A DNA stretch of 64,000 bases from Chlorobiota bacterium (GTDB lineage: Bacteria > Bacteroidota > Ignavibacteria > Kapaibacteriales > UBA2268): NCBI GenBank assembly GCA_046290495.1, contig JBKAGT010000006.1, positions 50,056 to 114,055 on the forward strand, read 5' to 3'. The stretch's first letter is position 1. Each line of letters starts with the position of its first letter. Shown in pieces: positions 1,394-43,691 of the stretch. The position numbers were made by a program, and so were the translations under genes. The notes beneath the pieces were generated by a model, which was given only the letters and a program-made list of their open reading frames with translations, was not told the DNA's origin and did not search any database.

Positions 1394-3469
1394 TTATTCT
1401 ATTATAATTCTTTGTAGAGCTTGTTCACCTAGGTCTGACTTTACCACAACATAGTACAAGCCAGGATTAATACCAGTCAGATCAATTGGTTTTACTAATT
1501 GCCCTTTTGCATATTGCGTAGGGTTACCAATTCGTTTTATTAACTTACCTGATAGATTGTATACTGCCATAGATAGACTTCTGTCTTCCTTCAACGACAG
1601 CTCAACTGATGATTGGTCAACTGCTGGGTTCGGGTATAGCTTCATACCTTGTATTGCACCCGAACAACCACTCCATACATCCATAACTGCATCATCTTTT
1701 TTCACTGGCTCGTTGTTACAGTGTTCCGCTTGATCGTCAGCAGCATTCAGCTCAGGATTGATTTTCTGTATCAATCTGCTCGGTAATTTTTCTAAGAACT
1801 CATCTGTTGCTTCGTACCAAACTATGAAATCTGTTTTGTCGCCACCTAAGCTCACCTCTATTGGTATCAGCTTGTTTATATCATGTTTGATTAAGGAGAA
1901 TGACATATTGGATAATCCATCGAGTTTATTGAGACTGTTTAATTCACTTAGCTTAGATAAATCTAACGCTGAACCATTTAATACTTTAGAATTAACATTT
2001 ACTGATTTTAGTTCTTTTATGTCAACATTATCTCCTGACCTCTGTAGCAAATCGCGTACATATACATCGTCGTCGAGTTGAGTATCATATACTGTATTTG
2101 CAGATACAGAATCGTAAAGTCTAATTAATTGCTCATCTGTAATCTCATTGCTATTATTGCTAACAATCTTAATTTTCTTTCCTTCTCTGAGACTCTTTAT
2201 AGGCATGTGTATAGTACTACCGTTGCTATTACTTGAACGAACATCAGCATCAGTTTCCACTAACACTATCCCGTCTCCATCAAGTGAGTCTAATGAAGTA
2301 ATCATTATTTTCTCTATGTCCTCATCACTTAAATCTTCAGATGTTAGGTTGACTTTTCTATCTATCTTCTTTTGAACATATCTAAACTCATTCCTAGTTC
2401 CATCTTCACTGTTTACATCCATTTCGACTTTCATGGTGATATCATCTTCTACTTCGCCTTCGAGTTCTTTTATCTTCATAAATTTCTCAATAGCATCAGG
2501 TGACATTTCTCCGCTTTTTAGCAAGTCTTTCAACTTGAAAGTCATTTCCTTGTCACCTATCTTCAGTTTGATATCTTCTAGACTCTCAATTCTATTAATC
2601 ACTTTTGCTGAGTCTTTGTGACCTGAAAGCATTGTTTTATAATCATCGAAGCTCATTTCACCGAATTTGAATTCTGGTAGATTCTCATCTATATCAAAGT
2701 CAACTTCAGATTTTATTTCAGTAGTCATTCTCAAAGACTGTGAATCACCATCTTCAGATTTCACTCGATCTACAATTGCTTCCAGTCCATCACTTTTGAA
2801 TAAGGTTAGTGTCTTAAAACCGCTTGCTGTTGTTACCATAGCCGGTGTAGGATATGCTTTTTCATCATTTTTATAAGGATTTCTTTCTTTGTTATTATCC
2901 TCATAGATAGTGAATGTGTATTTATCAAAAGCATTTACCTTAAAATTATCTTTATCAATGCTGATACCTAAGTTATCTAGTTCGTCAGCTGAGAGAGTAA
3001 GTGTATTAACTTGCTTTACATCTACCTCATCACTAGTCCAGATGTTATCTTTTGAATCCAGTTTAACCCTTTTAATTTTAGTTCTTCTAGCTAAACTGTC
3101 ATCATTTGGCTTAGGTGGATTCTTTTTCTCAAACTCTTTCTCTTTCTTGTGGTCGCGAGTTTTTGGCTCATTGTCATCGACTGGGATTATACCATCTTCG
3201 CCGTTGTCAGCTATTATTTCTATCTTATTTTTCGAATCGACTATATTTTCATTTGTTGGTTCAGTAAACTGAGAGAGCATAAGCACCCCAACAATTGCAG
3301 CCGAAGTAATTAAAGTCGTTATCATAGGATATGTCCGTATTTTGTTTAACAAATTAGTTGCAATGCCCCCATCACTCAATTTGCCTGCAAGAATCTTTCT
3401 CGTTTCTTCCTGACTTATGCCTGGTTCCACGTTTCTTGCTTTTTCAAAATATTTATCCAAATTATTCAT
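1394..3469 (-). CDS. putative anti-sigma-factor-like single-pass membrane protein with a long acidic extracytoplasmic region and a T9SS C-terminal sorting domain
   Basis: 691-aa ORF whose ATG overlaps the sigma factor stop (ATGA at 3466-3469). Short N-terminal cytoplasmic segment, one TM helix (ITTLITSAAIVGVLMLSQF), about 550 aa of D/E/K-rich low-complexity sequence, and a C-terminus (YPNPAVDQSSVELSL...VYNLSGKLIKRI...IDLTGINPGLYYVVVKSD..QRIIIE) matching the Por_Secre_tail/T9SS CTD pattern. Confidence 0.6.
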   Translation of the reverse strand: MNNLDKYFEKARNVEPGISQEETRKILAGKLSDGGIATNLLNKIRTYPMITTLITSAAIVGVLMLSQFTEPTNENIVDSKNKIEIIADNGEDGIIPVDDNEPKTRDHKKEKEFEKKNPPKPNDDSLARRTKIKRVKLDSKDNIWTSDEVDVKQVNTLTLSADELDNLGISIDKDNFKVNAFDKYTFTIYEDNNKERNPYKNDEKAYPTPAMVTTASGFKTLTLFKSDGLEAIVDRVKSEDGDSQSLRMTTEIKSEVDFDIDENLPEFKFGEMSFDDYKTMLSGHKDSAKVINRIESLEDIKLKIGDKEMTFKLKDLLKSGEMSPDAIEKFMKIKELEGEVEDDITMKVEMDVNSEDGTRNEFRYVQKKIDRKVNLTSEDLSDEDIEKIMITSLDSLDGDGIVLVETDADVRSSNSNGSTIHMPIKSLREGKKIKIVSNNSNEITDEQLIRLYDSVSANTVYDTQLDDDVYVRDLLQRSGDNVDIKELKSVNVNSKVLNGSALDLSKLSELNSLNKLDGLSNMSFSLIKHDINKLIPIEVSLGGDKTDFIVWYEATDEFLEKLPSRLIQKINPELNAADDQAEHCNNEPVKKDDAVMDVWSGCSGAIQGMKLYPNPAVDQSSVELSLKEDRSLSMAVYNLSGKLIKRIGNPTQYAKGQLVKPIDLTGINPGLYYVVVKSDLGEQALQRIIIE

Positions 3470-21033: not shown

Positions 21034-21570
21034 TTAACCTCTATCAGAATCTTCGTCATTATCTTCATCTTCATCGTCATCGCCTTCATCATCTCTGTCA
21101 TCAGTATCCTTTCTGTCATCGTGTTTCTTATCAGAGCCAACTTTCTTCACATAGAAATGAGCAACTAATTGAGGAACATCACTTCTAGGGCTAACTATTC
21201 TTTCTACACCTTTCAAATGAATAACACAGCCGCCAACCATGAAGCTAGGGTTTTCTTTTGTAAGTGTGATAGACTGCATACCGTCTTCTGTTCTTACATT
21301 CACTATTACCACAGTATTACCAGCGTCATCTACACTAATAGATTCTACCATAAAAATGCCATCACAAGGAGTAGTAACTACATCACCTTGCATTCCTCTT
21401 AGCATTACTACGTCAGTACGTCCTCCACCTTTGCCGTCTCCTTTGCCATCACCGCGTCCATCTCCGCCACCAGTGCCACCACCTGGGTTCCAATCTGCTG
21501 GGTTGAAGTTACAAGCTGCCATAGCAAGCACTAACATCGTCATTAGCGATAGTTTGAATAAATTTTTCAT
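21034..21570 (-). CDS. lipoprotein with Gly-rich N-region and poly-acidic C-terminus, hypothetical
   Basis: Lipobox LAMAAC; GGGTGGGDGRGDGKGDGKGGGR; C-terminal DDRKDTDDRDDEGDDDEDEDNDEDSDRG. Confidence 0.6.
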   Translation of the reverse strand: MKNLFKLSLMTMLVLAMAACNFNPADWNPGGGTGGGDGRGDGKGDGKGGGRTDVVMLRGMQGDVVTTPCDGIFMVESISVDDAGNTVVIVNVRTEDGMQSITLTKENPSFMVGGCVIHLKGVERIVSPRSDVPQLVAHFYVKKVGSDKKHDDRKDTDDRDDEGDDDEDEDNDEDSDRG

Positions 21571-21683: not shown

Positions 21684-22163
21684 TTACAATGAATACCCAA
21701 ACTTGAAACTCACTGGATAAAATGGAATATTTTCCATAGAGTAAGTAGGGCAAATGGCACCACCAATAAACCAATCATCTCCTATTGTATGCCGGAATCC
21801 TAAAGTGAAACTAATTGAAGTTGCTGTATTGAAAAAATCACCTGGGTCATTAGTGTCATAATACTCTTGTACTATTGCTATTCCAATGTCTAGTTTCCTT
21901 TTTAATCCTGAAATGTAATGGAACCCAAGCAAGTAACTAGGCTGTGGCTTAAATAAAACCAAAGTCATTAAAGAAACTCCTAATCTAATTCTTATACTTT
22001 GTTCATTCACAGAGTCATTAGACATTTCAATAAATTTATACTCAAGATTTGGAGATATCAACCCTTTCTGAGGTCCTTGAAATTCATTGTATATGAAGAC
22101 ATTCTTATCATTCTTCGAAAATGAGACACTGTATAAAATCAATAGTAAAAGAAAATATTTCAA
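21684..22163 (-). CDS. small secreted beta-barrel-like protein, family B copy 1
   Basis: 159 aa, TTG start. Signal peptide. C-terminus ..AICPTYSMENIPFYPVSFKFGYSL is paralogous to 23656..24135. Confidence 0.6.
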   Translation of the reverse strand: MKYFLLLLILYSVSFSKNDKNVFIYNEFQGPQKGLISPNLEYKFIEMSNDSVNEQSIRIRLGVSLMTLVLFKPQPSYLLGFHYISGLKRKLDIGIAIVQEYYDTNDPGDFFNTATSISFTLGFRHTIGDDWFIGGAICPTYSMENIPFYPVSFKFGYSL

Positions 22164-22486
22164 AAGCTGTACCCCATACTTAAACCAATGTAATGTGTTA
22201 GGACTCCTTCTTCATATTCTGATTCAATAATAAATGAGGGTGTATATGTTATTCTATAAATAATATTATCAGAATATAATCTATACCCTATTTCAAAACC
22301 AATTGCATTGTAGTCATCTTTTGATGCCACACGCTCAGAACGTGGCAAACTTTTATTTAAAAAATCACGATGGTATCGTTCAAAATAATTTATCCCTAAA
22401 TCTATTCCCTCATCAGTACCTAAGTATTGTATAAAGCCTATAATTGGATAACTATACACTAAAACCACGTCATAAAAACCAAACAT
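22160..22486 (-). CDS. family A copy 1, N-terminally truncated paralog (no signal peptide; possible pseudogene)
   Basis: 108 aa. Aligns only to the C-terminal two thirds of 24123..24632 (DDYNAIGFEIGYRLYSDNIIYRITYTP.. vs DNYDALGFNVGLREYSDSFFFRINYTP..). An in-frame stop lies 39 nt upstream of the ATG, so there is no room for the missing N-terminus. Confidence 0.45.
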   Translation of the reverse strand: MFGFYDVVLVYSYPIIGFIQYLGTDEGIDLGINYFERYHRDFLNKSLPRSERVASKDDYNAIGFEIGYRLYSDNIIYRITYTPSFIIESEYEEGVLTHYIGLSMGYSF

Positions 22487-22565
22487 TGATGAACCGTATT
22501 TAATATGAAGATAATATGAAAATTGTCAAGATTATATATTTAGAAAAACTGTTCAACTATGAATT

Positions 22566-23618
22566 TTACTTTTTAATAAACTTAATGAATTCATCATCTA
22601 TATTGAGAACATAACAACCACTAACAAGGTTTTTTATATCTAACTTATAGTCAGAATTAGGGATATTACTTAATTCTTTAACCAAGTCTCCAGATAGGTT
22701 GTAAAGCTTTATGCTATAGGGTAATTTATTGCTATTAACAATTAAGTATTCTTCAGCTGGGTTTGGGTAAACAATAAAAGAAGCTGACTTAGTATTTTCT
22801 ACTGATGAAATAGGTTCTAATTTGGTTTTGGAAATAACACCAGTATTATACTCACTTACATACATATCATCACCATTTATAATAAATCTAGTAGGCCCAC
22901 TATATGAATCAGTAAAGAATTCTGGGTAAGGGTTTGAATCAGTTAAGTCTAATTTAAATATTAACCCACTATTTGTATTACAGACATATAAATAATTTTC
23001 TCTTATTCTGACCCCATAAACACCTCCTAAGTCAGTTGCTAAGTCTTCAATAATGGGATTTTCTATAGTAATGTCAATTTTCGATATTTTTTTTGCTCCA
23101 TATTCACAAATAAATAAATCATCACCATCTATTGCTAATCCCTCTGGTTCATCGAGACCATAGACAACATCTGATAATACTGGATTCTCTTCGGTAATAT
23201 TTATTTTAGAAATTTTTCCTGCCCTGAATTCACTAATAAATAAATAATTTCCACTATGTGCTAATCCTGAAGGCCCATTTAATCCAGAAACAACTTCAAT
23301 TGAAACAGGGTTATTTGCTGTAATGTCAACCTTAGAAATTCTACCAGCAAAAAATTCAGAAATATAAAGATAATTTCCAATTAGAATTATCCCGCTAGGT
23401 GAATTCAATTCAGAAACAACTTCAATTGGGGTAGGTTCAACCTCAGTAATTTCAATTTTTGATAACTTCTTAGCATCACTTTCAACAAAGTATAAAAAAT
23501 CACCATCGATAGCTAACCCATAGGGTCCCTTCAGAAATTTTAAGATATCTGTTGTTTGAGGTAAAATTACTGTAAAGCTACAGATAAAGATAACAGTAAA
23601 GATTATAAATTTTCTCAT
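22566..23618 (-). CDS. secreted six-bladed beta-propeller protein with T9SS C-terminal sorting domain
   Basis: 350 aa. Signal peptide. About 6 repeats of about 43 aa (..GLA.DGD.LY..E....KISKI.IT..NP..). C-terminus VYPNPAEEYLIV...LYNLSGDLVKEL...LDIKNLVSGCYVLNIDDEFIKFIKK. Confidence 0.8.
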   Translation of the reverse strand: MRKFIIFTVIFICSFTVILPQTTDILKFLKGPYGLAIDGDFLYFVESDAKKLSKIEITEVEPTPIEVVSELNSPSGIILIGNYLYISEFFAGRISKVDITANNPVSIEVVSGLNGPSGLAHSGNYLFISEFRAGKISKINITEENPVLSDVVYGLDEPEGLAIDGDDLFICEYGAKKISKIDITIENPIIEDLATDLGGVYGVRIRENYLYVCNTNSGLIFKLDLTDSNPYPEFFTDSYSGPTRFIINGDDMYVSEYNTGVISKTKLEPISSVENTKSASFIVYPNPAEEYLIVNSNKLPYSIKLYNLSGDLVKELSNIPNSDYKLDIKNLVSGCYVLNIDDEFIKFIKK

Positions 23619-23655
23619 TTCGAGTACCTAAAGATTTAAATGGAAAAAAAATTGC

Positions 23656-24135
23656 CTAGAATGAATAGCCAAATTTAAAACTCACAGGATAAAATGGCTT
23701 ATTTGTAATTCCATAAGTAGGGCATATTGCAAACCCTACAAAGTAATCATCATCAAGATCATGCCTATAGCCAACATTAAAAGATACTGATGTTCCTGTA
23801 TTCATCACATATTTCTCTTGTAAAACTTGATATAATATGTTTACTCCTAGATCTAACTTATGTTCATCACCTCCAATATAGTGAAATCCACCAAGAAAGC
23901 TTGGGTAAAAAGTAAATAATGATAAACCTGTAATCCTAACAGCCCCTCTTAATCTCAAATCACCTTCATTAAGTAGCATACTATCCATCGAAAGTAATTT
24001 CATTTCATAATTCACTGAAAAAAGTGATTCCTGGGGGCCGTAAAATTCTGTGTATAAAAACATATCACTTTCTTCACAAAACGTGATGGAATATGAGAGC
24101 AATATTAGTATAGTTAAGTATTTCAAAAGCCCCAT
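23656..24135 (-). CDS. small secreted beta-barrel-like protein, family B copy 2
   Basis: 159 aa, ATG start, signal peptide. C-terminus ..FAICPTYGITNKPFYPVSFKFGYSF. Alternating hydrophobic strands. Confidence 0.6.
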   Translation of the reverse strand: MGLLKYLTILILLSYSITFCEESDMFLYTEFYGPQESLFSVNYEMKLLSMDSMLLNEGDLRLRGAVRITGLSLFTFYPSFLGGFHYIGGDEHKLDLGVNILYQVLQEKYVMNTGTSVSFNVGYRHDLDDDYFVGFAICPTYGITNKPFYPVSFKFGYSF

Positions 24136-24632
24136 CCAAAACTAAAACTAACAATTCCTCTAAACTCTTTATCTGTCAAATTATATAAAGGGGTATAATT
24201 TATCCTAAAAAAGAATGAATCTGAATATTCTCTTAAACCTACATTAAACCCTAACGCATCATAATTGTCCAATTCATACATTGAGTTAACTTCTACAAAA
24301 TCTCCATAGAAATCACTTTTATACTGACGAAAGTAGCTAGCTCCAAATTCTACACCAAACTCATCACCTATAACATGGTTTATACCTACTATAGGTGAAG
24401 AATACGCTGTACGATATCCTAGTCCAAACATAGATGCACCAAGTGTAAGATATGTTGTCTGAAGTCCTCCAAATAGCTCGAAACTGTTTACATTGTATTC
24501 CAATGTAGGTTTGAGTAGCGGCGAGTAGCCTAATATTTCACAATAAATATTGATAGTCTTTTCTTCAGATTTTAATGATAATGAAGAAAGAATGAAAAAT
24601 ACTAAAACGATATACATTGAAAATCTGTTCAA
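24123..24632 (-). CDS. small secreted beta-barrel-like protein, family A copy 2 (full length)
   Basis: 169 aa, TTG start giving MNRFSMYIVLVFFILSSLSLKS signal peptide. C-terminus ..FRINYTPLYNLTDKEFRGIVSFSFGWGF. Confidence 0.6.
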   Translation of the reverse strand: MNRFSMYIVLVFFILSSLSLKSEEKTINIYCEILGYSPLLKPTLEYNVNSFELFGGLQTTYLTLGASMFGLGYRTAYSSPIVGINHVIGDEFGVEFGASYFRQYKSDFYGDFVEVNSMYELDNYDALGFNVGLREYSDSFFFRINYTPLYNLTDKEFRGIVSFSFGWGF

Positions 24633-24752
24633 GTGTGAGCTGTTTAAATAATTGAATTAAACTAAGTTAAAAAAAAACAACTATTTGCCAAACTTTAATG
24701 ATCAAAAAAAATAAATTTCGGTATTCAAAGTCTTTTATTATATTTGAATATT

Positions 24753-25073
24753 ATGAAAACGATAGCAATCATATTACTAATTCTTGTAAACACCTTTGTG
24801 GCGTTTCCTTGCACCGACGACCATTCGTCTGAACAGGAACACCAAAGTGAGTTAGTAGAAGTTGATTGTTCTGAATTACATACCGAATTCAACGAAAATG
24901 AGGCAGAAACCTGCACTCCTTTTTGTGTATGTAGCTGCTGCCACACTCAGATAGTAGAACTAAGTAAGCAAAACTGTTGCAAGCCAATCGTATACAAACC
25001 AGACTATACTGAAAGACATTTCAATACTTTAGATTATTACAAACAACCAGACCCCTCTCCTCCAAAGGTATAA
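24753..25073 (+). CDS. small Cys-rich secreted protein preceding the heavy-metal RND pump
   Basis: ORF-track start 24744 is TTG; the first ATG is 24753 (MKTIAIILLILVNTFVAFPC). The mature part contains CTPFCVCSCCHTQ and NCCKP clusters (9 Cys in about 85 aa). Confidence 0.6.
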   Translation: MKTIAIILLILVNTFVAFPCTDDHSSEQEHQSELVEVDCSELHTEFNENEAETCTPFCVCSCCHTQIVELSKQNCCKPIVYKPDYTERHFNTLDYYKQPDPSPPKV

Positions 25074-25144: not shown

Positions 25145-28100
25145 ATGATTAATAGAATAATCGATTTCTCTGTTGAGAATCGTGTAGCTATTGGTGCACT
25201 TACTGTGTTGCTAATAGTAGCTGGTATATGGAGTATGAACAAAGTACCCATAGATGCAGTGCCGGATATAACCAACAACCAAGTTCAGATTATCACCCAA
25301 GCTCCAAATTTAGCGACAGTGGATATAGAGCAATTCGTTACTTACCCCGTGGAGTTAGAAATGTCTAACCTGCCAGGTGTTACCGAAATTCGCTCAGTTT
25401 CCAGATTTGGACTGTCAGTTGTTACGGTTGTGTTCGAAGATGATATGGGTACATATTTGCCCCGTCAGTTAGTTCAAGAAAAATTAGAAAAAGTAAGAGA
25501 TAAGATTCCAGAGCAATTTGGCTCGCCAGATATGGGACCAATTAGTACGGGACTAGGGGAAATATACCAATATAGTTTAGAGGTTGATAGTTCCATGAAA
25601 GGCAAGTACTCGCTAGCTGACTTGAGGAGTTTCCAAGACTGGATAGTGAACAGACAAATGGCTATGGTACCAGGAGTTGTTGAGGTAAATAGTTTTGGAG
25701 GTAAGATAAAGCAATATGAGATTGCAATAGAGCCAGAGAAGCTAAAAGCTATGAATCTTACCATTTCCGATGTATTTGATGCACTAAAGAGGAATAATGA
25801 GAATACAGGTGGTGCTTACATTGTCAAAAACCATTTGGCTAATTATATCCGTGGCGAAGGACTTATCAGAAACACCAAAGATATTGAGCGTATAAAGGTA
25901 GCCACCAAGGAAGGAATTCCGATTATGGTCGGTGATATTGCCATTGTCCAAATAGGTAGTGCAGTTCGCTATGGTGCATTCACAAGAAATGGTGAAGGTG
26001 AAGCAGTTGGTGGTATGGTTATGCTTCTTAAGGGGGCAAACTCCAATGAAGTAATTACAGCCGTAAAAGAAAGAGTAGAACAAATTCAATCATCACTTCC
26101 GAAAGGTATTAGGATTGTTCCATTTTTAGATAGAAGTGAATTAATTAGTGATACTACTAGCACTGTAGCTACTAACTTGATAGAAGGTGGGCTAATAGTG
26201 ATTTTCGTTCTAGTTATCTTCTTGGGTAACTGGCGTGGTGGATTAATAGTAGCTTCTACTATCCTGTTATCGCTGCTTTTTGCATTCATTATGATGTATG
26301 CCTTTGATGTCTGGGCAAACTTAATGAGTTTAGGCGCTATTGACTTCGGTATCATTGTTGATGGTGCAGTGATAATCGTTGAAGGTACGGTATTCGGCAT
26401 TACTCAAAAATTGAAAAAATCAGGCGAGAATATTGGTAAAGATGATATTAAAAATATAGCTAAGAGTTCATCTAAAAAAATGATGAATTCGGCATTCTTT
26501 GGTCAGCTTATTATTCTGATTGTATTTATTCCAATTCTCACTCTAGAGGGTATAGAGGGAAAGATGTTCAAACCGATGGCATTAACATTTGGTTTTGCTA
26601 TGTTGGGTGCTATGTTGCTATGTCTGACTTATGTTCCTATGATGTCAGCGACATTTTTAAAGAGTACGAACAAGGTTAGCATTGGTGATAAGATAGTACA
26701 TTTCCTTGAAAGATTGTACACCAAAGCATTGAGTTTTGTGATTCGCTTCTCTAAAAGCTTTATCATAACTTTAGGTGCATTACTTGGGTTTACAATTTAT
26801 CTGTTCACTAATTTGGGTGGTGAGTTTATTCCTCAGCTTGATGAGGGGGACATTGCTTTTCATATTATGCTGAAGCCTGGCTCCTCGATAGAGGAGTCAG
26901 TTAAAGCCGCAACAGAAGTAGAGAAATTAATAATGACCGAATTCCCAGAAATTGAACAAGCAATGTCAAAATTTGGTGTTTCAGAAGTTCCTACAGACCC
27001 AATGCCAATGGACATTGGTGATTGTATAGTAAAGCTAAAACCTAAAGATGAATGGTCTTCAGCGAGTACTAAAGATGAGTTGATTGCTAAAATGAAGAAA
27101 GTTCTACAAACTATACCAGGTTTGAACTATGAATTTTCTCAGCCAATTGAAATGAGATTCAATGAACTTATATCAGGTGTAAGACAAGACATAGCAATCA
27201 AAATATTTGGCGAAGATTTGGATTTATTGGCAGAGAAAGCTGAAGAAGTGCAGTCACTTTTAGCTGGTATTCAAGGAATAGGTGATATGTCTGTAGAAGC
27301 AACTTCAGGTCTATCACAGATTACAGTTGATTACGATAGAGCTAAATTAGCTCAATACGATATTGATATTTCAGAAGCAAACGAATTACTCAAAACTGCT
27401 TTTGCAGGTGGCAAAGCAGGTGTTATATTCGAAGGGGAAAAACGCTTCGATATGGTAGTTCGGCTGAATAGCGATAATAGAAAAAGCATAGAAGATATAA
27501 AGTATTTATATATAAATACACCTGAAGGGACACAGTTGCCACTTAGTGAAGTTGCTAACGTGCAATATGTGGAAGGCCCTATGCAAATTGGCCGCGACAA
27601 CACTAACAGGAGGGTTTACGTTGGAATAAACGTAAGAGACAGGGACATAGAAACCCTGATGGAAGAGATAAAAGCTAAGCTTAGCTCTGAGTTAGAATTG
27701 CCTGCTGGTTATTACATTACTTATGGTGGTGCTTTCGAGAATTTGGAAAGGGCTATGAGCAAGCTAACTGTTGTTATACCTCTTGTACTATTGCTTATAT
27801 TTATATTGATATACTTTGCATTGAAGTCATTCAAATATACTTCGCTTATCTTTTTAGCAATACCGTTTGCTACTATTGGAGGAGTGTTGTCGCTATGGTT
27901 GAGGGGCTTACCATTTAGTATATCAGCGGGGGTTGGTTTTATAGTGCTTTTTGGTGTTGCCGTTCTCAACGGATTAGTTCTACTTAATGGACTGGAAGAA
28001 CTAAAAGAAGAGCTACCAAATGCAGATATGGATGAGAGAATAAAAAAAGGAACTGTAAGAAGAGTTCGACCGATATTACTAACTGCTCTTACTGATGTTC

Positions 28101-29485
28101 TCGGATTTTTCCCTATGGCAATTAGTATGTCCGCTGGTGCAGAAGTACAAAGACCCTTAGCCACAGTTGTTATCGGTGGACTTTTTACATCTACTTTACT
28201 TACACTTTTCTTATTACCAATACTATACAGATGGCTGGAGACTTATAAGATGAAAAGAATTCCTAATGTTGCTACGGCTATAATAGCTATTTTCATTGTA
28301 CTGATTGGTTCTAATGATAAAGCATTATCACAAGATAAAATAGAGTTAGAGCAGTATGAGCAGATAACATTGCAAGAAGCAACTGAGATAGCTAAGAAAA
28401 ATTACCCTCTGATGAAAATAAGTGATTTGAAGGTAGAAAAGGCTAATAAGCAGAAGAAAAAAGCGATAAACTTTGGAACTACGCAGATATTCACTGGAGC
28501 AGAGGAGAGAGGAAATGGGCTCGATGGAGTAGAGAGTGTTATTGGGGTTAGTCAGAACAACATAGATTTATTCGGTTCTTTTGCTCGAGGAGATTATTAC
28601 TCAAAGAATAGTGAATTAGCTGAAGCAAGCAGAGCATTGACTGAACTAGAGCTTGAGAAGTTAGTAGCTAAAAGATGGGTAAATTTAAACTATGCTAAGA
28701 GCAGATACTATTTCTTCTATTCTCTTGATTCGTTGTTGAGTGGAGTAAATAAATATAATAATTCAAGGTATGAAGCAGAGGCAATATCTGGATTGGAGTA
28801 TTCTGTAACTAAATCAAATTATATAGAAATAAGGAATAAGCTATCCCAATCAAAGGCAGATGTGTTGAGTGCTACTCATTTATTTAATCAACTATTATCC
28901 GATGAACAAACCTACACTACAACAGGGGATAAATTTGAATTAGAGGAGATGACCTCTAATATTAGCTTGGAGCAGCATCCAATGTTGCAGTATCAGCAAA
29001 AACAAGTTGAACTTAGTGAGTCGAATTTAGATATAAATTACAGCAAGCTATACCCAAAGATAAATGGTCAATATAGAGTGCAAAATATACAAGGTCAGTC
29101 AGGATTCTATGCATATCAATTTGGGATTTCTGTACCACTAATATTCAATTCTGTATCTGGAGATATAGGAGCAGCTGAACAAGAAGTTATGATAAGAAAA
29201 GAAATGTATGAAATGCAACGATTGGAGCTGGAAGCCAATTACAAAGCTCAACTCGCTGAGTATGAGAAGTGGCGTGATTCCTATGTGTTCTACCGCTCAG
29301 AGGTTATACCATTGGCAAAAGAAATAAAAGACAAGTCATACTTACGCTACAAAAGTGGCGAGATTGACTATATGGACTTTGTTCAAAGTATAGAGAAAGT
29401 AGTAAAAATGGAAGAAGAGTATTTGAAATCGATGAGCAAATACTTTGAAGCTTATGTCAATATGAAATATTATAATAGCAAATAA
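25145..29485 (+). CDS. CusA/CzcA-family heavy-metal efflux RND permease fused in frame to a TolC-like outer membrane factor domain
   Basis: 1446 aa. Residues about 1-1035 are CzcA-like (12 TM helices, two large periplasmic loops, ending ..LLPILYRWLE). The frame continues with no stop into MKRIPNVATAIIAIFIVLIGSNDKALSQ (signal-peptide-like), then about 400 aa with OMF character (..ITLQEATEIAKKNYPLMK.. and coiled-coil-rich repeats). Confidence 0.85.
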   Translation: MINRIIDFSVENRVAIGALTVLLIVAGIWSMNKVPIDAVPDITNNQVQIITQAPNLATVDIEQFVTYPVELEMSNLPGVTEIRSVSRFGLSVVTVVFEDDMGTYLPRQLVQEKLEKVRDKIPEQFGSPDMGPISTGLGEIYQYSLEVDSSMKGKYSLADLRSFQDWIVNRQMAMVPGVVEVNSFGGKIKQYEIAIEPEKLKAMNLTISDVFDALKRNNENTGGAYIVKNHLANYIRGEGLIRNTKDIERIKVATKEGIPIMVGDIAIVQIGSAVRYGAFTRNGEGEAVGGMVMLLKGANSNEVITAVKERVEQIQSSLPKGIRIVPFLDRSELISDTTSTVATNLIEGGLIVIFVLVIFLGNWRGGLIVASTILLSLLFAFIMMYAFDVWANLMSLGAIDFGIIVDGAVIIVEGTVFGITQKLKKSGENIGKDDIKNIAKSSSKKMMNSAFFGQLIILIVFIPILTLEGIEGKMFKPMALTFGFAMLGAMLLCLTYVPMMSATFLKSTNKVSIGDKIVHFLERLYTKALSFVIRFSKSFIITLGALLGFTIYLFTNLGGEFIPQLDEGDIAFHIMLKPGSSIEESVKAATEVEKLIMTEFPEIEQAMSKFGVSEVPTDPMPMDIGDCIVKLKPKDEWSSASTKDELIAKMKKVLQTIPGLNYEFSQPIEMRFNELISGVRQDIAIKIFGEDLDLLAEKAEEVQSLLAGIQGIGDMSVEATSGLSQITVDYDRAKLAQYDIDISEANELLKTAFAGGKAGVIFEGEKRFDMVVRLNSDNRKSIEDIKYLYINTPEGTQLPLSEVANVQYVEGPMQIGRDNTNRRVYVGINVRDRDIETLMEEIKAKLSSELELPAGYYITYGGAFENLERAMSKLTVVIPLVLLLIFILIYFALKSFKYTSLIFLAIPFATIGGVLSLWLRGLPFSISAGVGFIVLFGVAVLNGLVLLNGLEELKEELPNADMDERIKKGTVRRVRPILLTALTDVLGFFPMAISMSAGAEVQRPLATVVIGGLFTSTLLTLFLLPILYRWLETYKMKRIPNVATAIIAIFIVLIGSNDKALSQDKIELEQYEQITLQEATEIAKKNYPLMKISDLKVEKANKQKKKAINFGTTQIFTGAEERGNGLDGVESVIGVSQNNIDLFGSFARGDYYSKNSELAEASRALTELELEKLVAKRWVNLNYAKSRYYFFYSLDSLLSGVNKYNNSRYEAEAISGLEYSVTKSNYIEIRNKLSQSKADVLSATHLFNQLLSDEQTYTTTGDKFELEEMTSNISLEQHPMLQYQQKQVELSESNLDINYSKLYPKINGQYRVQNIQGQSGFYAYQFGISVPLIFNSVSGDIGAAEQEVMIRKEMYEMQRLELEANYKAQLAEYEKWRDSYVFYRSEVIPLAKEIKDKSYLRYKSGEIDYMDFVQSIEKVVKMEEEYLKSMSKYFEAYVNMKYYNSK

Positions 29486-35925: not shown

Positions 35926-38900
35926 ATGAAACAATCGTTTACTAAATTGGCATTTATGCTACTTTTAGCTTTAACTATGGCACTTCCAAGCACTTTGTTT
36001 AGTGGTGTAGATGAAGCTGAAATGACTGAAAAGCTACCTGCTTTACTTGGTCAAGACAATATGGGGCGTGAATTTTGGTTCGCGATTCCACCAGTATATG
36101 AAGAAGTAGCTGGTGATAACTTCGTTAGAGTCTTAGTGACAAGTGATGTAGAGACAGATGTTGTCATTCAAGTAGAAGGTAAAGGGGTTTATAAGAAAAA
36201 AACTACAATCCCAAATAGTGTAATTGACTTTGAATTGAATCCTGCACAAGCACAACCGATTCCACATAGATTGGGTACTCATATTTCACCACCAGCAAAA
36301 ATATATAAAGGTGCAGGTGTACAAGTATCAGCAGACCAACCAATCGTTGTTTATGTAGTAATCAAATACAAATATACTTCAGATGGTTTCCTAGCTCTTC
36401 CTGTTTCTGGATTAGGTGATAGATACATCAATATGGTTTACCAAGATCCAGCTTTGGGTGGTGCTAATAGCCACGCACCAGCATTCACTTGTGTTACGGG
36501 TGTTTATGACAATACTCAAGTCAATATGACTATGGGTGGTGGCCCTATGGGTAGTGATAAAATGAAGTTAGATGGTGGTAGAGAATTAGCAACTGGTGAC
36601 CAAACATCATTCTTCTTAGATAGAGGTGATGTATGGATGGGTGCTTCTAGTGGCCATTTTCAAGATATTTCTGGTTCATTGTTCGAAGGTACGAAGCCAT
36701 TCGCAATAGTTTCTGGTATGCACTGTGCTAACTTCCCGGTTGGGAATGCTTGGTGTGATTATACAGTAGAAATGGAATTACCAACTTATGCTTGGGGTAA
36801 ACAATACTATATTACTCCTATGGAAGGTAGAACTTATAATGGTATAATCAGAATTTATGCCGCAGAAGACAATACTACAATTTATAGAAATGGTCAAGTA
36901 ATGGGTTTACTTACTCATGGTGGTGGTAATACGATAGGTAAAGCTTATATGGAGATGAGAGTCTGGCCAAAACTTGATGACTTCGGCCAAGCAATAAGAC
37001 CAAAAATTGCTACTATCCATGCTGACAAACCAATTGCAGTGATGTATTATAATACTGGTACACAAGAAGATGTTGGTACTGCAGATAGTGATCCATTCCA
37101 ATTATTCTTTACTCCTATTGAGCAATTCCAAACGGAAATATTATTCCCTTCACCTAATGCATTAGGTGGGACAGATTTTTATACTAAGAATTATGTGAAC
37201 ATTGTTTATGAAATGCACGAGGATTTCATACCTCAAGATTTAATGTTTGCTAAAATGGAAGTTGGAAGAGATCCGGACTGGAAACCAGTTTCTCAAGTAG
37301 TGGCTGGTGCTCCTAGAGTATTTACTGAAAAATACCAAGGAAAGGAATTTGGTACTTCTACTCTATCCTTACCTACAGAAGGTGTGTTTTCACTAAGGTC
37401 AGACTCAACTAAATTTGTTGCGTATTCTTATGGGTTTGCTTCATACGAGTCTTACGGTTTCCCTACTTCTGCTGCACTTCGTGATTTATCTTCACCTGAC
37501 ACGAACGCTCCAGTTCCTAATTACGTTCAAGAATGTAATGGTGATGTACTAAAAGACATGGGTACAGTAACTGATATGCCAGAAGATGATGAAGTAAGAT
37601 CAAATATGGCAGATTTATACCTAATAGAAAACTTAAATGATAATTATGTACTAGACTATAGAATACCGGGAACTAACAATAAAGATTTCATTCCTGGTGA
37701 GCAAAGAACATTATCATGGTGGTTAACTGTAGTTGACAAAACTCAGCCTGCAAGAGCTACTATAGCTTTCTTAGATAGAGCTGGTAATGACACTACTATT
37801 ACGATTAGCTACGATCCACCTGAGTTTGAAGTAGTAAGCGGTAATGCATTTGGTGTTATGGCTGCTTCTGATGCTCCTGTGGTAATGCAAGATACAATAA
37901 GAAACTTATCTACTACAGTACCTCAGTATATAACTAAGGTTGAGTTGCAAGATGGTGGTCAAGGATTTAGTATAGCTAGTTTTGAACCTGCTGGTTGGAC
38001 GCCGCCAATGGAAATTGGTCCAGGTGAAGAAGTTATTGTAAATATAGAGTTTGATCCAGCGGCTGCTGCTGCTAGTGGAGAAAAAGCAATTTACATAGAC
38101 TCGCTTGGTGTAGGTTATGGAGATGAGGATTTCAATGAGTGTGGATTTGCTTACTTCACTGAACAATCTGGTTCTCTGGGAGTTCCAGTAATCGAAGTAA
38201 CTGATTGGGACTTCGGCACAAGAAATATAAACGAAGTAACTCCTGACACTAGAATTATGACTATAACCAACACTGGTGATGAGATGCTAAGAATTACAGG
38301 TATCTCACAAGATTTACCTGCTGGTTCTATGTTCACTCATAACTTCATGACTTTATTCCCTGATGTATCTGTTGATACACCTTTAGAAATTGCACCAGGT
38401 GACTTAGTAGAGTTTCAAGTAGGATTTATGCCTACAGCTGTTGGAACTTATGCTGAAAACATTGTATTTGATAATAATACTAAAGATGGTAATACTACAG
38501 ATCATATCTGTGAATTGAAAGGTGTTGGTACTGATGCCCCTGTTTCTGCTGATGGTTATGTATGGCAAGGTGTTTTAATTAATAGACCTGCTACATTCCC
38601 TGCTGGACCTTATGATGTTGATGTAGATAGTCAACATGATGGATTCATAGTAAAGAATCTTGGTGATGCTGATGGAGACATAGCGCAAGTTGTTTCTATA
38701 AATATTGTTAGCGAAACTCCAAATGCAAGAGAATACTTCAGAACGAAGAACGGTGACGAAAATATCGTTGACTTCTTAAATAATAGTATTAGAGGACTAA
38801 ACTTAGCTGGAGATGTTACTAGAGAAGAAGCTATAGTCTTTAATCCTACTGAAAAAGGTCTTCACAGAATTGAGTTTGAATTAGTATTCAATGAAGAAAC

Positions 38901-40521
38901 TGGTAATGCAACATTACCTGTAGTTTATGAAGGTATTGGTGAAGCACCAAATGTCGAGGTAACAAATGTAACATTTGCACCTATGTTAGTTAACGATGAA
39001 GCTAATGCTCAAACTACTGGTGTGATGACAATTACTAATACTGATGATGAATATGGTCATCCTCTGAATATAACTGGAATTTCATTCGATAATGCTATTG
39101 TTAGCGATGATATTGCTGATTTCCAAGGACTAACATTCAGATATGATGGTAATTTATATCAAGACTTAGTAGATGGTAATATTATTCTGAATAAAGGTCA
39201 AAGTTTAAACATCCCAGTACATTTCGTAGCAAGACAAGTAGGAAATAATTCTGTAGTTGCAACGATTGAGTCGAATGCATACGTAGATGGTCCTGATTAC
39301 GATAATGATTCTGATTGGAATGGTGTAGGTACAGATCTAATTGTAAATATTAGTTCTCCTTATACTCTATTATGTCTAAATGAAACTGAATTTATTAATA
39401 TTACATTATCAAATCCTGGAACTGATAACCCAGTAACCATAAATGAGTTATCATTATCTGATTATGATTTAGACGGAGACGGTGTTGATGACTTATTCAT
39501 TACTTCTCCAACAACTAACGTAACAGTACCAGTGAATGGTGATGTCAATGTAGTTGTAGAATACACTCCTACTGGTTTAATCAACAGACAGTTTGTAGAG
39601 CTTATTATCGATCATGATTATGGTAATAATTTGGCAATCAATGGTGCAGATGAAGCATTAGAAGTTGAATCAGAATTCTTCGTTGGTAATACTCAGACAA
39701 ATGTAACTGGTGCTAGCAGTAGTAATCCTACAAATCCTGATTATGATACAGAGTATATGGTGTCAATTGGCGATGAATTCGAATATCAAATTGGATTAAC
39801 TGGTAACGCATCAGGAACTGATGCACAGACAATTACTGTAAATATTAATTATAATAGTTTGTTTACATCACCTTTGATTGAAGAAGGTAACAATATGCCT
39901 AATATTACTAGTGAAGCTAGTGCAGAAGTACAACCGGGATCTTATTCCGTAGCTCCTGATGCGAACGGCCCTAAAGGTAGTATGGTTATGACATTTACTC
40001 TACAAAGCACAGATGGTAGTTCTATATTTGCTAACAATAATATAATTGCTAGTGTTCCATTCAGAGTTGTACTTCCTGCAGTAAATGAGGAAGGTGCTCT
40101 AGGTGAAATTGGACAAGATGACGATTCTTATGGAAGATTCGATATGAGTCATACTCTAACTGATTTACCAACTTGTTATGCACACACTGAAGACGATGTG
40201 TTATTAGCAATCGAAGAGATTTGTGTTGGTGATTACAGAGCACTTTATGTTAGTGACTTTAACTTCGGTGAACCAAATGTAACTCCTAACCCTGCAAGTT
40301 CTGCAGCGACTATAGAGTACACGGTGCCTTATGATATGCCTGGTGAGATTATATTGTATAACTCAGCTATGCAACAAGTTAAGACACTTTACAGTGGTGA
40401 GATGAAAGAAGGTGTTAGAACAGCTGATGTTCCTGTTAGTGAACTTTCAAATGGTACTTACTTCTTCACTGTTAAGATTGGTGAAAAACAACAAATGGGT
40501 AGAATAGTTATTGAGAAATAA
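35926..40521 (+). CDS. giant secreted surface/adhesin-like protein with IgGFc-binding-N-terminal-like domain and T9SS C-terminal sorting domain
   Basis: 1531 aa. Signal peptide. N-terminal region (..GREFWFAIPPVYEE..VLVTSDVETDVVIQV..) paralogous to the N-terminus of 56254..58617. Long beta-rich middle. C-terminus VTPNPASSAATIEYTVPYDMPGEIILYNSAMQQVKTLYSGEM...GTYFFTVKIGEKQQMGRIVIEK. Confidence 0.8.
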   Translation: MKQSFTKLAFMLLLALTMALPSTLFSGVDEAEMTEKLPALLGQDNMGREFWFAIPPVYEEVAGDNFVRVLVTSDVETDVVIQVEGKGVYKKKTTIPNSVIDFELNPAQAQPIPHRLGTHISPPAKIYKGAGVQVSADQPIVVYVVIKYKYTSDGFLALPVSGLGDRYINMVYQDPALGGANSHAPAFTCVTGVYDNTQVNMTMGGGPMGSDKMKLDGGRELATGDQTSFFLDRGDVWMGASSGHFQDISGSLFEGTKPFAIVSGMHCANFPVGNAWCDYTVEMELPTYAWGKQYYITPMEGRTYNGIIRIYAAEDNTTIYRNGQVMGLLTHGGGNTIGKAYMEMRVWPKLDDFGQAIRPKIATIHADKPIAVMYYNTGTQEDVGTADSDPFQLFFTPIEQFQTEILFPSPNALGGTDFYTKNYVNIVYEMHEDFIPQDLMFAKMEVGRDPDWKPVSQVVAGAPRVFTEKYQGKEFGTSTLSLPTEGVFSLRSDSTKFVAYSYGFASYESYGFPTSAALRDLSSPDTNAPVPNYVQECNGDVLKDMGTVTDMPEDDEVRSNMADLYLIENLNDNYVLDYRIPGTNNKDFIPGEQRTLSWWLTVVDKTQPARATIAFLDRAGNDTTITISYDPPEFEVVSGNAFGVMAASDAPVVMQDTIRNLSTTVPQYITKVELQDGGQGFSIASFEPAGWTPPMEIGPGEEVIVNIEFDPAAAAASGEKAIYIDSLGVGYGDEDFNECGFAYFTEQSGSLGVPVIEVTDWDFGTRNINEVTPDTRIMTITNTGDEMLRITGISQDLPAGSMFTHNFMTLFPDVSVDTPLEIAPGDLVEFQVGFMPTAVGTYAENIVFDNNTKDGNTTDHICELKGVGTDAPVSADGYVWQGVLINRPATFPAGPYDVDVDSQHDGFIVKNLGDADGDIAQVVSINIVSETPNAREYFRTKNGDENIVDFLNNSIRGLNLAGDVTREEAIVFNPTEKGLHRIEFELVFNEETGNATLPVVYEGIGEAPNVEVTNVTFAPMLVNDEANAQTTGVMTITNTDDEYGHPLNITGISFDNAIVSDDIADFQGLTFRYDGNLYQDLVDGNIILNKGQSLNIPVHFVARQVGNNSVVATIESNAYVDGPDYDNDSDWNGVGTDLIVNISSPYTLLCLNETEFINITLSNPGTDNPVTINELSLSDYDLDGDGVDDLFITSPTTNVTVPVNGDVNVVVEYTPTGLINRQFVELIIDHDYGNNLAINGADEALEVESEFFVGNTQTNVTGASSSNPTNPDYDTEYMVSIGDEFEYQIGLTGNASGTDAQTITVNINYNSLFTSPLIEEGNNMPNITSEASAEVQPGSYSVAPDANGPKGSMVMTFTLQSTDGSSIFANNNIIASVPFRVVLPAVNEEGALGEIGQDDDSYGRFDMSHTLTDLPTCYAHTEDDVLLAIEEICVGDYRALYVSDFNFGEPNVTPNPASSAATIEYTVPYDMPGEIILYNSAMQQVKTLYSGEMKEGVRTADVPVSELSNGTYFFTVKIGEKQQMGRIVIEK

Positions 40522-41369: not shown

Positions 41370-43691
41370 ATGAAACAGTTAATAAAAGTCTTATTTCTAC
41401 TCTTTTCTGTTAGTTTCCTTTATTCTCAACCGGATAATTTTACCTCAAATTATGACAAGTATAATTGCTTTGCATTCGATGACGACAACTACTATGTGGG
41501 TCTAGTCAATGGCTTTGTAGTGCAAGATAGGGAAACGGGGGAATATAAATATTACTCTACACTCAACTCGGATATGAAAGGTAATAATGTGAGTGATATT
41601 GATGTGTATAAAGGTAAGGTGTATTTTACTTCTAATAGGGGTGTCTATAGTTACAGTAATAGCATTGTAGAAAGTCTGGGTTATGATTCTTTATTTTTTT
41701 CAGGCATACAAAAAGATGAAGAAGGTTACCTCTGGTTTTACAGTAATGATTTAATATTTGGTTTTGATGGCAGTTATTTCAAGTATTTCGACCTCTCATT
41801 ACATACGTCTAGGTATGCTGAATTAAATAAAATATATACTCATGAAGAGTATTTGTGGCTTTCTTTTAAAACTTATAATAATAAGTATTCTTATGTCTTG
41901 ATAAATGTAAATGAAGATACTCTAAAAGCATTTGAACCAGTGGAGATTGGATTTGAAGATAATTATACGAAACTTATTGCTTTTTCAAATGGAAAAGCTT
42001 GGCTCAAATCTACAAGCAACGAAGTTTTTAATTATACTTTTTCCTCAAGTGAATGGAGCGAAGAAAATACTAAGTTTATCACTCCTTATGGCTATCAAAT
42101 AGTACCATATATAATTACAAACCAAAAGGGGAAGATGTGGTTTATAATGTTCGATAAAGTTGGTGAAGGAGTACGGAAAGTAGCCACTTTTGAGAATGAT
42201 CAATATGTCGTTGAAACAAAATTTGAGGAGTTAGCTGCTAATAATGGCAAAACCTGGAATAGGTTATACAAATTTGATGACGAATTAATACTATCAACTG
42301 TATCGGGTGAGTATTACAGAATAGAAGATGAAATTCTTGAGTTAATTGCTGAAGCAGATACAAATGCTAAATTAACACAAGAAACTAATTTTTATAAAAA
42401 TGAGGATGAATTATTTAGATTAGCTAGAGTAACTAGAAACGAGACTTCTGCATTTGAAATTATTGATATAGAAAACAATAAAATAGACGAATTTAGAATT
42501 ACAAATAAGACTTATTTTCCATACCTTACATTAGGTAGTTACTATAAGATAGATGGAATGGAGTTTATTTCAAGGTATTATAACAATATATCCCGTGTCA
42601 ATAAAGATGGCATTTGGAATGGGGTTTCAACAATAGGTGTTGTAAATGATGATGGGGTCGTTGTTAAGAAAGATGTAAAGGGGGACTACTATTTTTACGA
42701 TGATTATCTATACAAATACAAAAATGGCAATGCTGAAAAGCTTTTCCGTTTTTCTCCTGAATATTTAAGAGGTATAGAAATTCATAATAACAACTCTTAT
42801 TTTTATTATTCCTATAAAATAGGTAATCATTATGTTGAGTTTAATCTAAATAGGAAGTTCGGAGTTAGGGTTGGGGCGTATGATCCAAAAGGAGAAAAGA
42901 TAAATGAAATATCTGATGAGGATGATTGCATAAACAATTGGTATGAGTATGGGAAATACTCAACATATTATTATGGGTCAGTACCTTCAGATATTAAAAT
43001 AGACAATAATAGTAATATATGGCTTTTAACATGGACTTCTCTCTATTATTTGGAAGAAAATAGCAACTGTACTTATTTTAAGTTTGAAAGTGATGAAGAT
43101 GATGAAGCAATAAAGCCAAACCAAATTGCTTATTCGAGATATCAAGGAAAGATGTATGGTAAAAGAGACAATTTGGTTTATAGCTTTAATGAAAGTGACT
43201 TTAAGACTGCTGACTCTAAAGATATGGTTGACGGGGAACTAAACTTTATCGGTGAATGTAACGATGGTTTGGTTTATGTAGCTACAACTGATGGTCGTCT
43301 GTTTAGACTAAATACTATAGATAGTTGGGAGAAAATACCCTTGGTAGAAGGGAAAGAAAGCATTCACGCTAATATTCGTAATGTATTTAGAAGTGAAGAT
43401 ACCCTGTATGTATCTACAGAAATTGGTTTAATCAAAGTTCATCAGAAGATTACATCGTTTGCAGAAGGAACGACTAAAGTTGACGATATTAATGTATATC
43501 CAAACCCTGTTGGAAGTGAGCTAACTGTAGTTGGCTATGAAGGCAAGGCCACGATTTTTAATTCTTATGGTACTGAAATTAAAAACATTGAGATTGATAA
43601 TAGCAATATTGACGTAAGTGGTTTAGTGCCTGGAATATATTTCATTTCAGATATTTATGGGAAGCAAATAGCTAAATTTGTTAAGGAATAG
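41370..43691 (+). CDS. secreted beta-propeller-repeat protein with T9SS C-terminal sorting domain
   Basis: 773 aa. Signal peptide. Reg_prop/Y_Y_Y-like repeats in the N-terminal region. C-terminus INVYPNPVGSELTVVGYEGKATIFNSYGTEIKNIEI...GLVPGIYFISDIYGKQIAKFVKE. Confidence 0.75.
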   Translation: MKQLIKVLFLLFSVSFLYSQPDNFTSNYDKYNCFAFDDDNYYVGLVNGFVVQDRETGEYKYYSTLNSDMKGNNVSDIDVYKGKVYFTSNRGVYSYSNSIVESLGYDSLFFSGIQKDEEGYLWFYSNDLIFGFDGSYFKYFDLSLHTSRYAELNKIYTHEEYLWLSFKTYNNKYSYVLINVNEDTLKAFEPVEIGFEDNYTKLIAFSNGKAWLKSTSNEVFNYTFSSSEWSEENTKFITPYGYQIVPYIITNQKGKMWFIMFDKVGEGVRKVATFENDQYVVETKFEELAANNGKTWNRLYKFDDELILSTVSGEYYRIEDEILELIAEADTNAKLTQETNFYKNEDELFRLARVTRNETSAFEIIDIENNKIDEFRITNKTYFPYLTLGSYYKIDGMEFISRYYNNISRVNKDGIWNGVSTIGVVNDDGVVVKKDVKGDYYFYDDYLYKYKNGNAEKLFRFSPEYLRGIEIHNNNSYFYYSYKIGNHYVEFNLNRKFGVRVGAYDPKGEKINEISDEDDCINNWYEYGKYSTYYYGSVPSDIKIDNNSNIWLLTWTSLYYLEENSNCTYFKFESDEDDEAIKPNQIAYSRYQGKMYGKRDNLVYSFNESDFKTADSKDMVDGELNFIGECNDGLVYVATTDGRLFRLNTIDSWEKIPLVEGKESIHANIRNVFRSEDTLYVSTEIGLIKVHQKITSFAEGTTKVDDINVYPNPVGSELTVVGYEGKATIFNSYGTEIKNIEIDNSNIDVSGLVPGIYFISDIYGKQIAKFVKE

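Follow-up and report, generated by a model that had tools for sequence, protein, structure and literature searches.

The window analysed here is a 64,000-nucleotide stretch of contig JBKAGT010000006.1 from a Chlorobiota bacterium (assembly GCA_046290495.1). Between positions 21,684 and 24,632 it holds two pairs of genes for small outer-membrane proteins, termed A and B, with a gene for a beta-propeller-like protein of a type IX secretion system (T9SS) between them. The initial annotation suggested that the A–B pair could be a dedicated two-subunit partner of that propeller, duplicated around its cargo. The five minus-strand open reading frames (ORFs) that it described lie where it placed them and are tightly packed. 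Together with a sixth feature, a fragment ahead of the second A gene, they are as follows, where type 1 and type 2 denote the two clades of the family and CTD the C-terminal domain recognised by the T9SS.

24123..24632, minus strand: A2, 169-aa precursor of the type-2 A subunit, a predicted 8-stranded outer-membrane barrel with an N-terminal signal peptide and the C-terminus ...FGWGF
23656..24135, minus strand: B2, 156-159-aa precursor of the type-2 B subunit, a predicted 8-stranded outer-membrane barrel
22566..23618, minus strand: propeller gene, for a secreted, beta-propeller-like repeat protein of 350 aa whose residues 283-350 form a T9SS type A CTD
22500..22556, minus strand: A1 signal-peptide remnant, starting at TTG and reading LNSFSKYIILTIFILSSY then TAA, in another frame than the A1 ORF
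22160..22486, minus strand: A1 remnant, 108-aa open ORF corresponding to about residues 67-176 of an intact type-1 A, with no signal peptide
21684..22163, minus strand: B1, type-1 B subunit encoded intact as a precursor of 159 aa, signal peptide included, from a TTG start that overlaps the A1 stop (TTGA)

Stops and starts overlap at both A-to-B junctions (TTGA, or 13 nt if ATG is used), and the start of B2, whether ATG at 24135 or TTG at 24126, overlaps the A2 stop in either case. The overlaps described for the remaining junctions are absent; B2 and the propeller gene are separated by 37 nt, and the propeller stop lies 79 nt from the A1 ATG. A scan for sigma-70 promoters and terminators gave counts at or below the shuffled expectation, with promoters of the Bacteroidota type falling outside the models scanned. 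Public calls of B genes are often short at the N-terminus. The NCBI record of a metagenome-assembled genome (MAG) gives 115 aa, and several JGI/ENA records give 135 aa. Such calls begin at an internal ATG and lose the signal peptide, an error that stems from the overlap of the true start, which may be TTG, GTG or ATG, with the stop of the A gene upstream.

A paired family of minimal outer-membrane barrels

The barrel-like character proposed for the small proteins is borne out by structure prediction. AlphaFold2 (AF2) models of the monomers are closed, antiparallel, 8-stranded barrels of 140-150 mature residues, superposable on solved members of clan MBB (OmpA-TM, OprF-N and OmpX). Structural comparison of the A2 model gave 16.4 for OprF-N, 14.3 for NspA, 14.2 for OmpA and 14.0 for PagL, with Foldseek concordant, and the closest matches of the A and B models are 8-stranded barrels. 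The predicted loops are short, with one exception in A2, an acidic loop of 16 residues modelled at low confidence. Inspected by eye, A2, B2 and B1 have an n-region containing K or R followed by a hydrophobic h-region, where AF2 models an N-terminal helix. The signal peptide ascribed to every protein is thus present in these three and missing from A1 through an internal deletion; a terminal aromatic residue is likewise found in three of the four, each ending in F, while B1 ends in Leu. The models show A and B as predicted Sec-exported, minimal outer-membrane barrels with a fold like that of OprF-N, OmpA-TM and OmpX. Two other views of the proteins were rejected: that A and B are two halves of one 16-stranded barrel, because the model of either protein by itself closes into a barrel of 8 strands and each has a signal peptide, and that B2 is a lipoprotein by virtue of the Cys in ...ITFC, because this Cys is conserved neither in orthologues nor in B1.

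Sequence models do not reach the family. Searched against Pfam-A with hmmscan at E<=1, A2, B2 and A1 matched no family and B1 gave only two weak, unrelated matches; none of the four small proteins matched NCBIfam. The PF11751, PF13505 and OmpW models that had been suggested for a check were matched by none of these four in the same search, and PF13505 was matched weakly by 2 of 42 distant relatives (best E=3.5e-4). The OmpA C-terminal domain (PF00691) has no match in the four proteins, in which nothing follows the last barrel strand. Searched against PDB sequences, a family profile found 0 matches at E<=10. An exhaustive HMM search of 1.84e9 representatives returned 9 clusters at E<1e-10 and 44 at E<1e-3, of which the named ones are hypothetical proteins of Ignavibacteria. 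Judged by these searches, the family is very small and restricted to Ignavibacteria-type bacteria, and judged by the models it is a new one within the 8-stranded outer-membrane barrel fold class.

The kinship of the small proteins stands as first described and is far beyond chance. B2 and B1 are 47% identical over the full 159 aa (BLASTP, E=2e-49), A2 and A1 are 33% identical over A2 residues 76-166 (E=1e-16), and A2 and B2 are distantly related to each other, with 30% identity over about 100 aa (E=1e-8). B is far better conserved than A. At least 90% conservation is found at 39 positions in B and 23 in A, with E, R, H, K, D and S all represented among the invariant residues of B. The invariant polar residues of B are H85, H125, S79, S116, S152, D95, K93, K154, E30 and E44, accompanied by an N-x-P-x-Y-P loop; A has no conserved His.

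A total of 23 related loci were gathered from Ignavibacteriota MAGs, and pairing was counted where both genes are visible (loci L001-L022). The two-gene module holds throughout. In 22/22 loci the gene directly upstream of B is A, its stop overlapping the B start, and the A–B bicistron is therefore the conserved unit, with a strict A-then-B order. Distant family members occur in other Ignavibacteria (e.g. GWB2_35_12-type genomes), where the genes lie among housekeeping genes. One locus (L028, 3382-4504) has a non-overlapping tandem pair of 166 and 167 aa that are 43% identical to each other, and another (L027, 4001-4513) has a singleton. Across the wider family, tandem pairs may be a repeated feature.

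The duplication of the pair is real and is much older than this locus. Neighbour-joining trees of A and of B both divide into the same two deep clades, with several genomes in each; type-2 proteins have 165-173 aa in A and 159-160 aa in B, and type-1 proteins have 172-180 aa in A and 156 aa in B. The window pair A2-B2 belongs to type 2 and A1-B1 to type 1. Window B1, placed in the type-1 clade, is 66% and 57% identical to the type-1 B proteins of L019 and L006, and only 47% identical to its own neighbour B2. Given these identities and the shared division of the two trees, the A–B pair was therefore co-duplicated anciently and not locally around a cargo gene. A duplication around the propeller is not borne out, as the two pairs represent deep clades that are each found in many genomes, and the trees and identities together rule out a recent local duplication.

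Decay of the type-1 pair and the shifting neighbours of A–B

The type-1 pair is decaying in this genome. The first codon of the A1 ORF corresponds to A2 residue 67, and the ORF aligns to residues 68-176 of the A1 of L019 and 72-180 of the A1 of L006. L019 is a metagenomic contig syntenic with the window, with the order propeller-A1-B1-lipoprotein and an intact A1. Compared with it, the window aligns over 56 nt, shows a net 131-nt deletion and resumes at GGTTCATCAATGTTTGG. The codons at 22556-22500, beginning TTG-AAC-AGT in a different frame from the ORF and running to a stop, are the former A1 signal peptide. Falling just after them, the deletion has therefore shifted the frame and left A1 without a signal peptide, so that A1 is a frameshifted remnant and a probable pseudogene, with its frame still open. 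This remnant retains 108 open codons in DNA of about 30% GC despite the lost start and signal peptide. This points either to a recent deletion or to retention of the frame, for example so that B1 goes on being translated by way of the TTGA overlap.

In the closest syntenic relatives (L001/L002 and L015/L018) the order is RND pump, DUF6660, A2, B2 and Gly-rich lipoprotein, with neither a propeller gene nor a type-1 pair at the locus. Their spacer between B2 and the lipoprotein gene is homologous to the window spacer between B1 and the lipoprotein gene, as expected after a deletion in which B2 and B1 recombined at their similar 3' ends. These relatives have lost propeller-A1-B1 altogether, apparently in this way. 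In L006, B2-A1-B1 are contiguous with no propeller.

Elsewhere the neighbours differ again. Type-2 pairs in L007, L008 and L013 lie between Mor-like/MarR/TonB-receptor genes and XRE and S24 genes, and L020 has a type-1 pair in the same slot. The pair of L017 adjoins a radical SAM gene, and a type-1 pair follows glyA in L012. Six further type-1 pairs lie downstream of a Cys-rich protein of 584-595 aa (L009, 5078-7486; L010, 5109-7484; L011; L014, 215-928; L021, 2109-4484; L022, 348-905). In these six loci a 206-aa protein and the Cys-rich protein are encoded directly upstream of A–B and nearly overlap it, and a convergent NlpC/P60 gene lies downstream. This arrangement is the sole recurrent neighbour of A–B apart from the propeller. 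The 584-aa Cys-rich protein and the 206-aa protein have no Pfam match, and tblastn against the window found no homologue of them. Features of the Cys-rich protein include a hydrophobic stretch and motifs like ECCFNHDIGLWC, which may resemble the CCxxHD motif of phospholipase A2.

The T9SS signal of the middle gene is firm. Its CTD matches PF18962 (E=5e-12, 46.3 bits against a cut-off of 27) and the type A model TIGR04183 (E=1e-8, 34.9 bits against a cut-off of 23). The N-terminus of the protein, MRKFIIFTVIFICSF, is hydrophobic, and its internal repeats of about 42 aa give weak NHL, LVIVD and DUF6923 matches. Orthologues were found only in L016 (62% identity), where A2-B2-propeller has flanks different from those of the window, and in L019 (78%), where the order is propeller-A1-B1; with the window these loci form one subclade. 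No cargo gene directly adjoins A–B in L001/2, L006, L007/8/13, L009/10/11/14/21/22, L015/18, L017 or L020. Wider homologues of the propeller are at most 41% identical and mostly Flavobacteriia proteins annotated as 'T9SS type A sorting domain-containing protein'. They lie in unrelated contexts, and none of those examined has an A/B neighbour.

The 64-kb window has four T9SS type A cargo genes (PF18962), the others being at 1394-3469 (-), 35926-40521 (+) and 41370-43691 (+), and no A/B-type neighbours lie beside these three. Among their products is a protein of 1531 aa that combines IgGFc_binding, Ig-like and cohesin-like domains. Downstream of the barrel genes, the lipoprotein-like gene (window 21034-21570 (-); L001 6522-7136; L015 6582-7184; L019 1620-2022) is a conserved neighbour in the window subclade, and the spacer before it carries a conserved TTTTTTGTTACC motif. 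Its product, MKN[LI]FKLS...AACNFNP, has 178-204 aa with a Gly-rich N-terminal region and a variable poly-Asp/Glu tail. On the other side of the barrel genes, window 25145-29485 (+) encodes a 1446-aa RND transporter (ACR_tran) with a C-terminal fusion to a TolC-like OEP domain (PF02321, E=6e-30, last 406 aa), kept at 1444-1446 aa in L001 and L015. It is preceded by the gene of the small Cys/His-rich DUF6660 protein (24744-25073; PF20365, E=5e-7) and followed by a membrane-fusion-protein gene.

Interpretation of the pairs and of the propeller

The best explanation, with a probability of about 0.68, is that the small genes are ancient paired copies of a lineage-restricted bicistron for 8-stranded outer-membrane proteins (OMPs), probably hetero-oligomeric and with a structural or envelope role, and that the propeller is a passenger. 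The overlap of the A stop with the B start would couple translation, so that A and B would be made at about 1:1. The two closed barrels may then act together as an outer-membrane hetero-oligomer, in which B would be the strongly conserved core, including buried-type E, R, H, K and D, and A the more variable partner with its long acidic loop. By analogy with the OmpA/OmpX class and with Pgm6/Pgm7 of Porphyromonas, the complex would most likely be a structural or envelope component of the outer membrane and, less likely, a dedicated secretion accessory. The propeller would be secreted by the general type A route, through PorV and the attachment complex. Going by the distribution of its gene, it appears to be a dispensable, lineage-specific local passenger and not a conserved partner.

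Several points weigh against this explanation. AF2 confidence is moderate (pLDDT 76-78) and the alignments are shallow, at 19-21 sequences. Coupling and the 1:1 stoichiometry are read only from overlaps of 4-13 nt, the association of A with B is predicted from the genes alone, and the structural role is argued from the fold and the lack of a conserved neighbour. The invariant His, Ser, Asp and Lys of B could mark an active or binding site. Moreover, the order A2-B2-propeller occurs in two different flanking contexts, in the window and in L016, which gives some weight to a functional tie to the propeller within one subclade, needless as such a tie is for explaining the data.

The density of invariant polar residues in B, which is unusual, is what most favours a different function. 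A–B would then be a lipid-modifying enzyme like PagL or PagP, or a conduit for small or hydrophobic molecules like OmpW, AlkL or CarO, with B as the catalytic or gating subunit. The repeated position of type-1 pairs between the Cys-rich protein and the NlpC/P60 gene, an envelope-related neighbourhood, also fits such a function. However, the proteins match none of the PagL, PagP or OmpW models in Pfam or NCBIfam, the lack of a conserved His in A would confine a catalytic site to B, and no substrate-related neighbour is conserved across the contexts. An enzyme or conduit is unlikely, although it fares better than the other alternatives.

More doubtful is the proposal that A and B are a dedicated two-subunit outer-membrane partner, analogous to PorP/SprF, that receives or anchors the propeller and is duplicated around it. 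The tight packing of five genes on a single strand, uninterrupted by any terminator-like site, is in keeping with it, as are the adjacency of the same propeller orthologue to A–B in three loci and the position of T9SS cargo genes two genes away in L012 and L015. However, the three loci with an adjacent propeller fall in one subclade and count as about one evolutionary event, set against some ten independent contexts, and chance adjacency is about 14% per pair (4 CTD genes among ~55 window genes, the gene count being an estimate). The closest relatives retain A2-B2 without the propeller, L006 carries the four barrel genes without it, and the pair downstream of the propeller in the window is half-dead. 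Homologues of the propeller elsewhere and the three other type A cargo genes of the window do without an A/B neighbour. In addition, PorP-like proteins are 14-stranded and serve cargo with a type B CTD (PMC9143113), whereas A and B are 8-stranded with no PF11751 match at E<=1. The A/B homologues recur in contexts unrelated to T9SS cargo, the finding that the initial annotation had named as refuting a dedicated partnership, and the T9SS-partner interpretation is not supported.

Comparably improbable is a broader version, in which A–B heterodimers form a PorP-independent outer-membrane docking module in Ignavibacteria that anchors or exports a protein encoded next to them, with A giving cargo specificity and B the core. 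The cargo could be the type A CTD propeller in the window subclade and the Cys-rich protein of 584-595 aa in the six other loci.

Least of all do the data suggest an assembly or annotation artefact, or small ORFs that are not genes. In favour of this, the window comes from a MAG, the deletion in A1 might reflect variation within the population or faulty assembly, and public annotations differ on starts (B2 as 115 or 135 aa). That reading is already largely refuted by orthologues of 56-88% identity, which keep their length, order and overlap on more than 20 independent contigs of several origins, by identical proteins on a 957-kb NCBI contig and by coherent AF2 folds.

If the explanation as a paired structural bicistron is right, A and B are an unannotated, lineage-specific family of minimal outer-membrane barrels without a Pfam or NCBIfam model, and describing it would improve the annotation of Ignavibacteria and Chlorobiota MAGs. 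The pair would also supply a clear case of 8-stranded OMPs that are obligately paired and probably hetero-oligomeric. The locus further shows how paralogue pairs mediate the loss of genes between them. For T9SS biology it breaks no new ground, the apparent arrangement of cargo and partner being a gene order that is local and decaying; what it offers is a real, unannotated, lineage-restricted family of paired OMPs, of modest interest.

Comparison with known systems

The system first invoked for this locus, PorP/SprF, resembles A–B in that its barrel genes adjoin a T9SS cargo gene, which for A–B is the case in one subclade. The PorP-like proteins are FadL-family barrels that bind their cognate cargo, while cargo with a type A CTD is handled by PorV and attached to A-LPS (PMC9143113). 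The PorP/SprF barrels have about 300 aa, against the 140-150 mature residues of A and B as modelled, and the propeller next to A–B has the other type of CTD and a linkage that is not conserved. All 4/4 of the PorP/SprF features compared (model match, 14 strands, type B cargo and conserved linkage) are absent from A/B, and the analogy fails on each.

The small functional barrels PagL, OmpW and CarO also differ from A and B. A and B match no sequence model of these proteins, the conserved polar set of B is not shared by A, and no lipid- or transport-related neighbour is conserved. Compared by sequence only with the His-Ser-Glu of PagL, B has invariant H85, H125, S116 and E30/E44.

The nearest likeness is to the 8-stranded barrels OprF-N, OmpA-TM, OmpX, Ail and NspA, with which A and B share the Sec signal peptide, the hydrophobic or aromatic C-terminal residue and, by prediction, the antiparallel barrel of similar size. 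They differ from the OmpA/OmpX class in their very short predicted loops, in having no periplasmic OmpA_C domain and in being always encoded as an overlapped heteropair, in Ignavibacteria-type lineages only. For such pairing there is a precedent in the FCB group. Pgm6 and Pgm7 of Porphyromonas gingivalis are paralogous OmpA-like OMPs that form a hetero-oligomer and stabilise the outer membrane (PMC6112661). These proteins form trimers and carry a C-terminal peptidoglycan-binding OmpA domain, whereas A and B are bare barrels, and the association observed for Pgm6 and Pgm7 is the one predicted here for the A–B pair.

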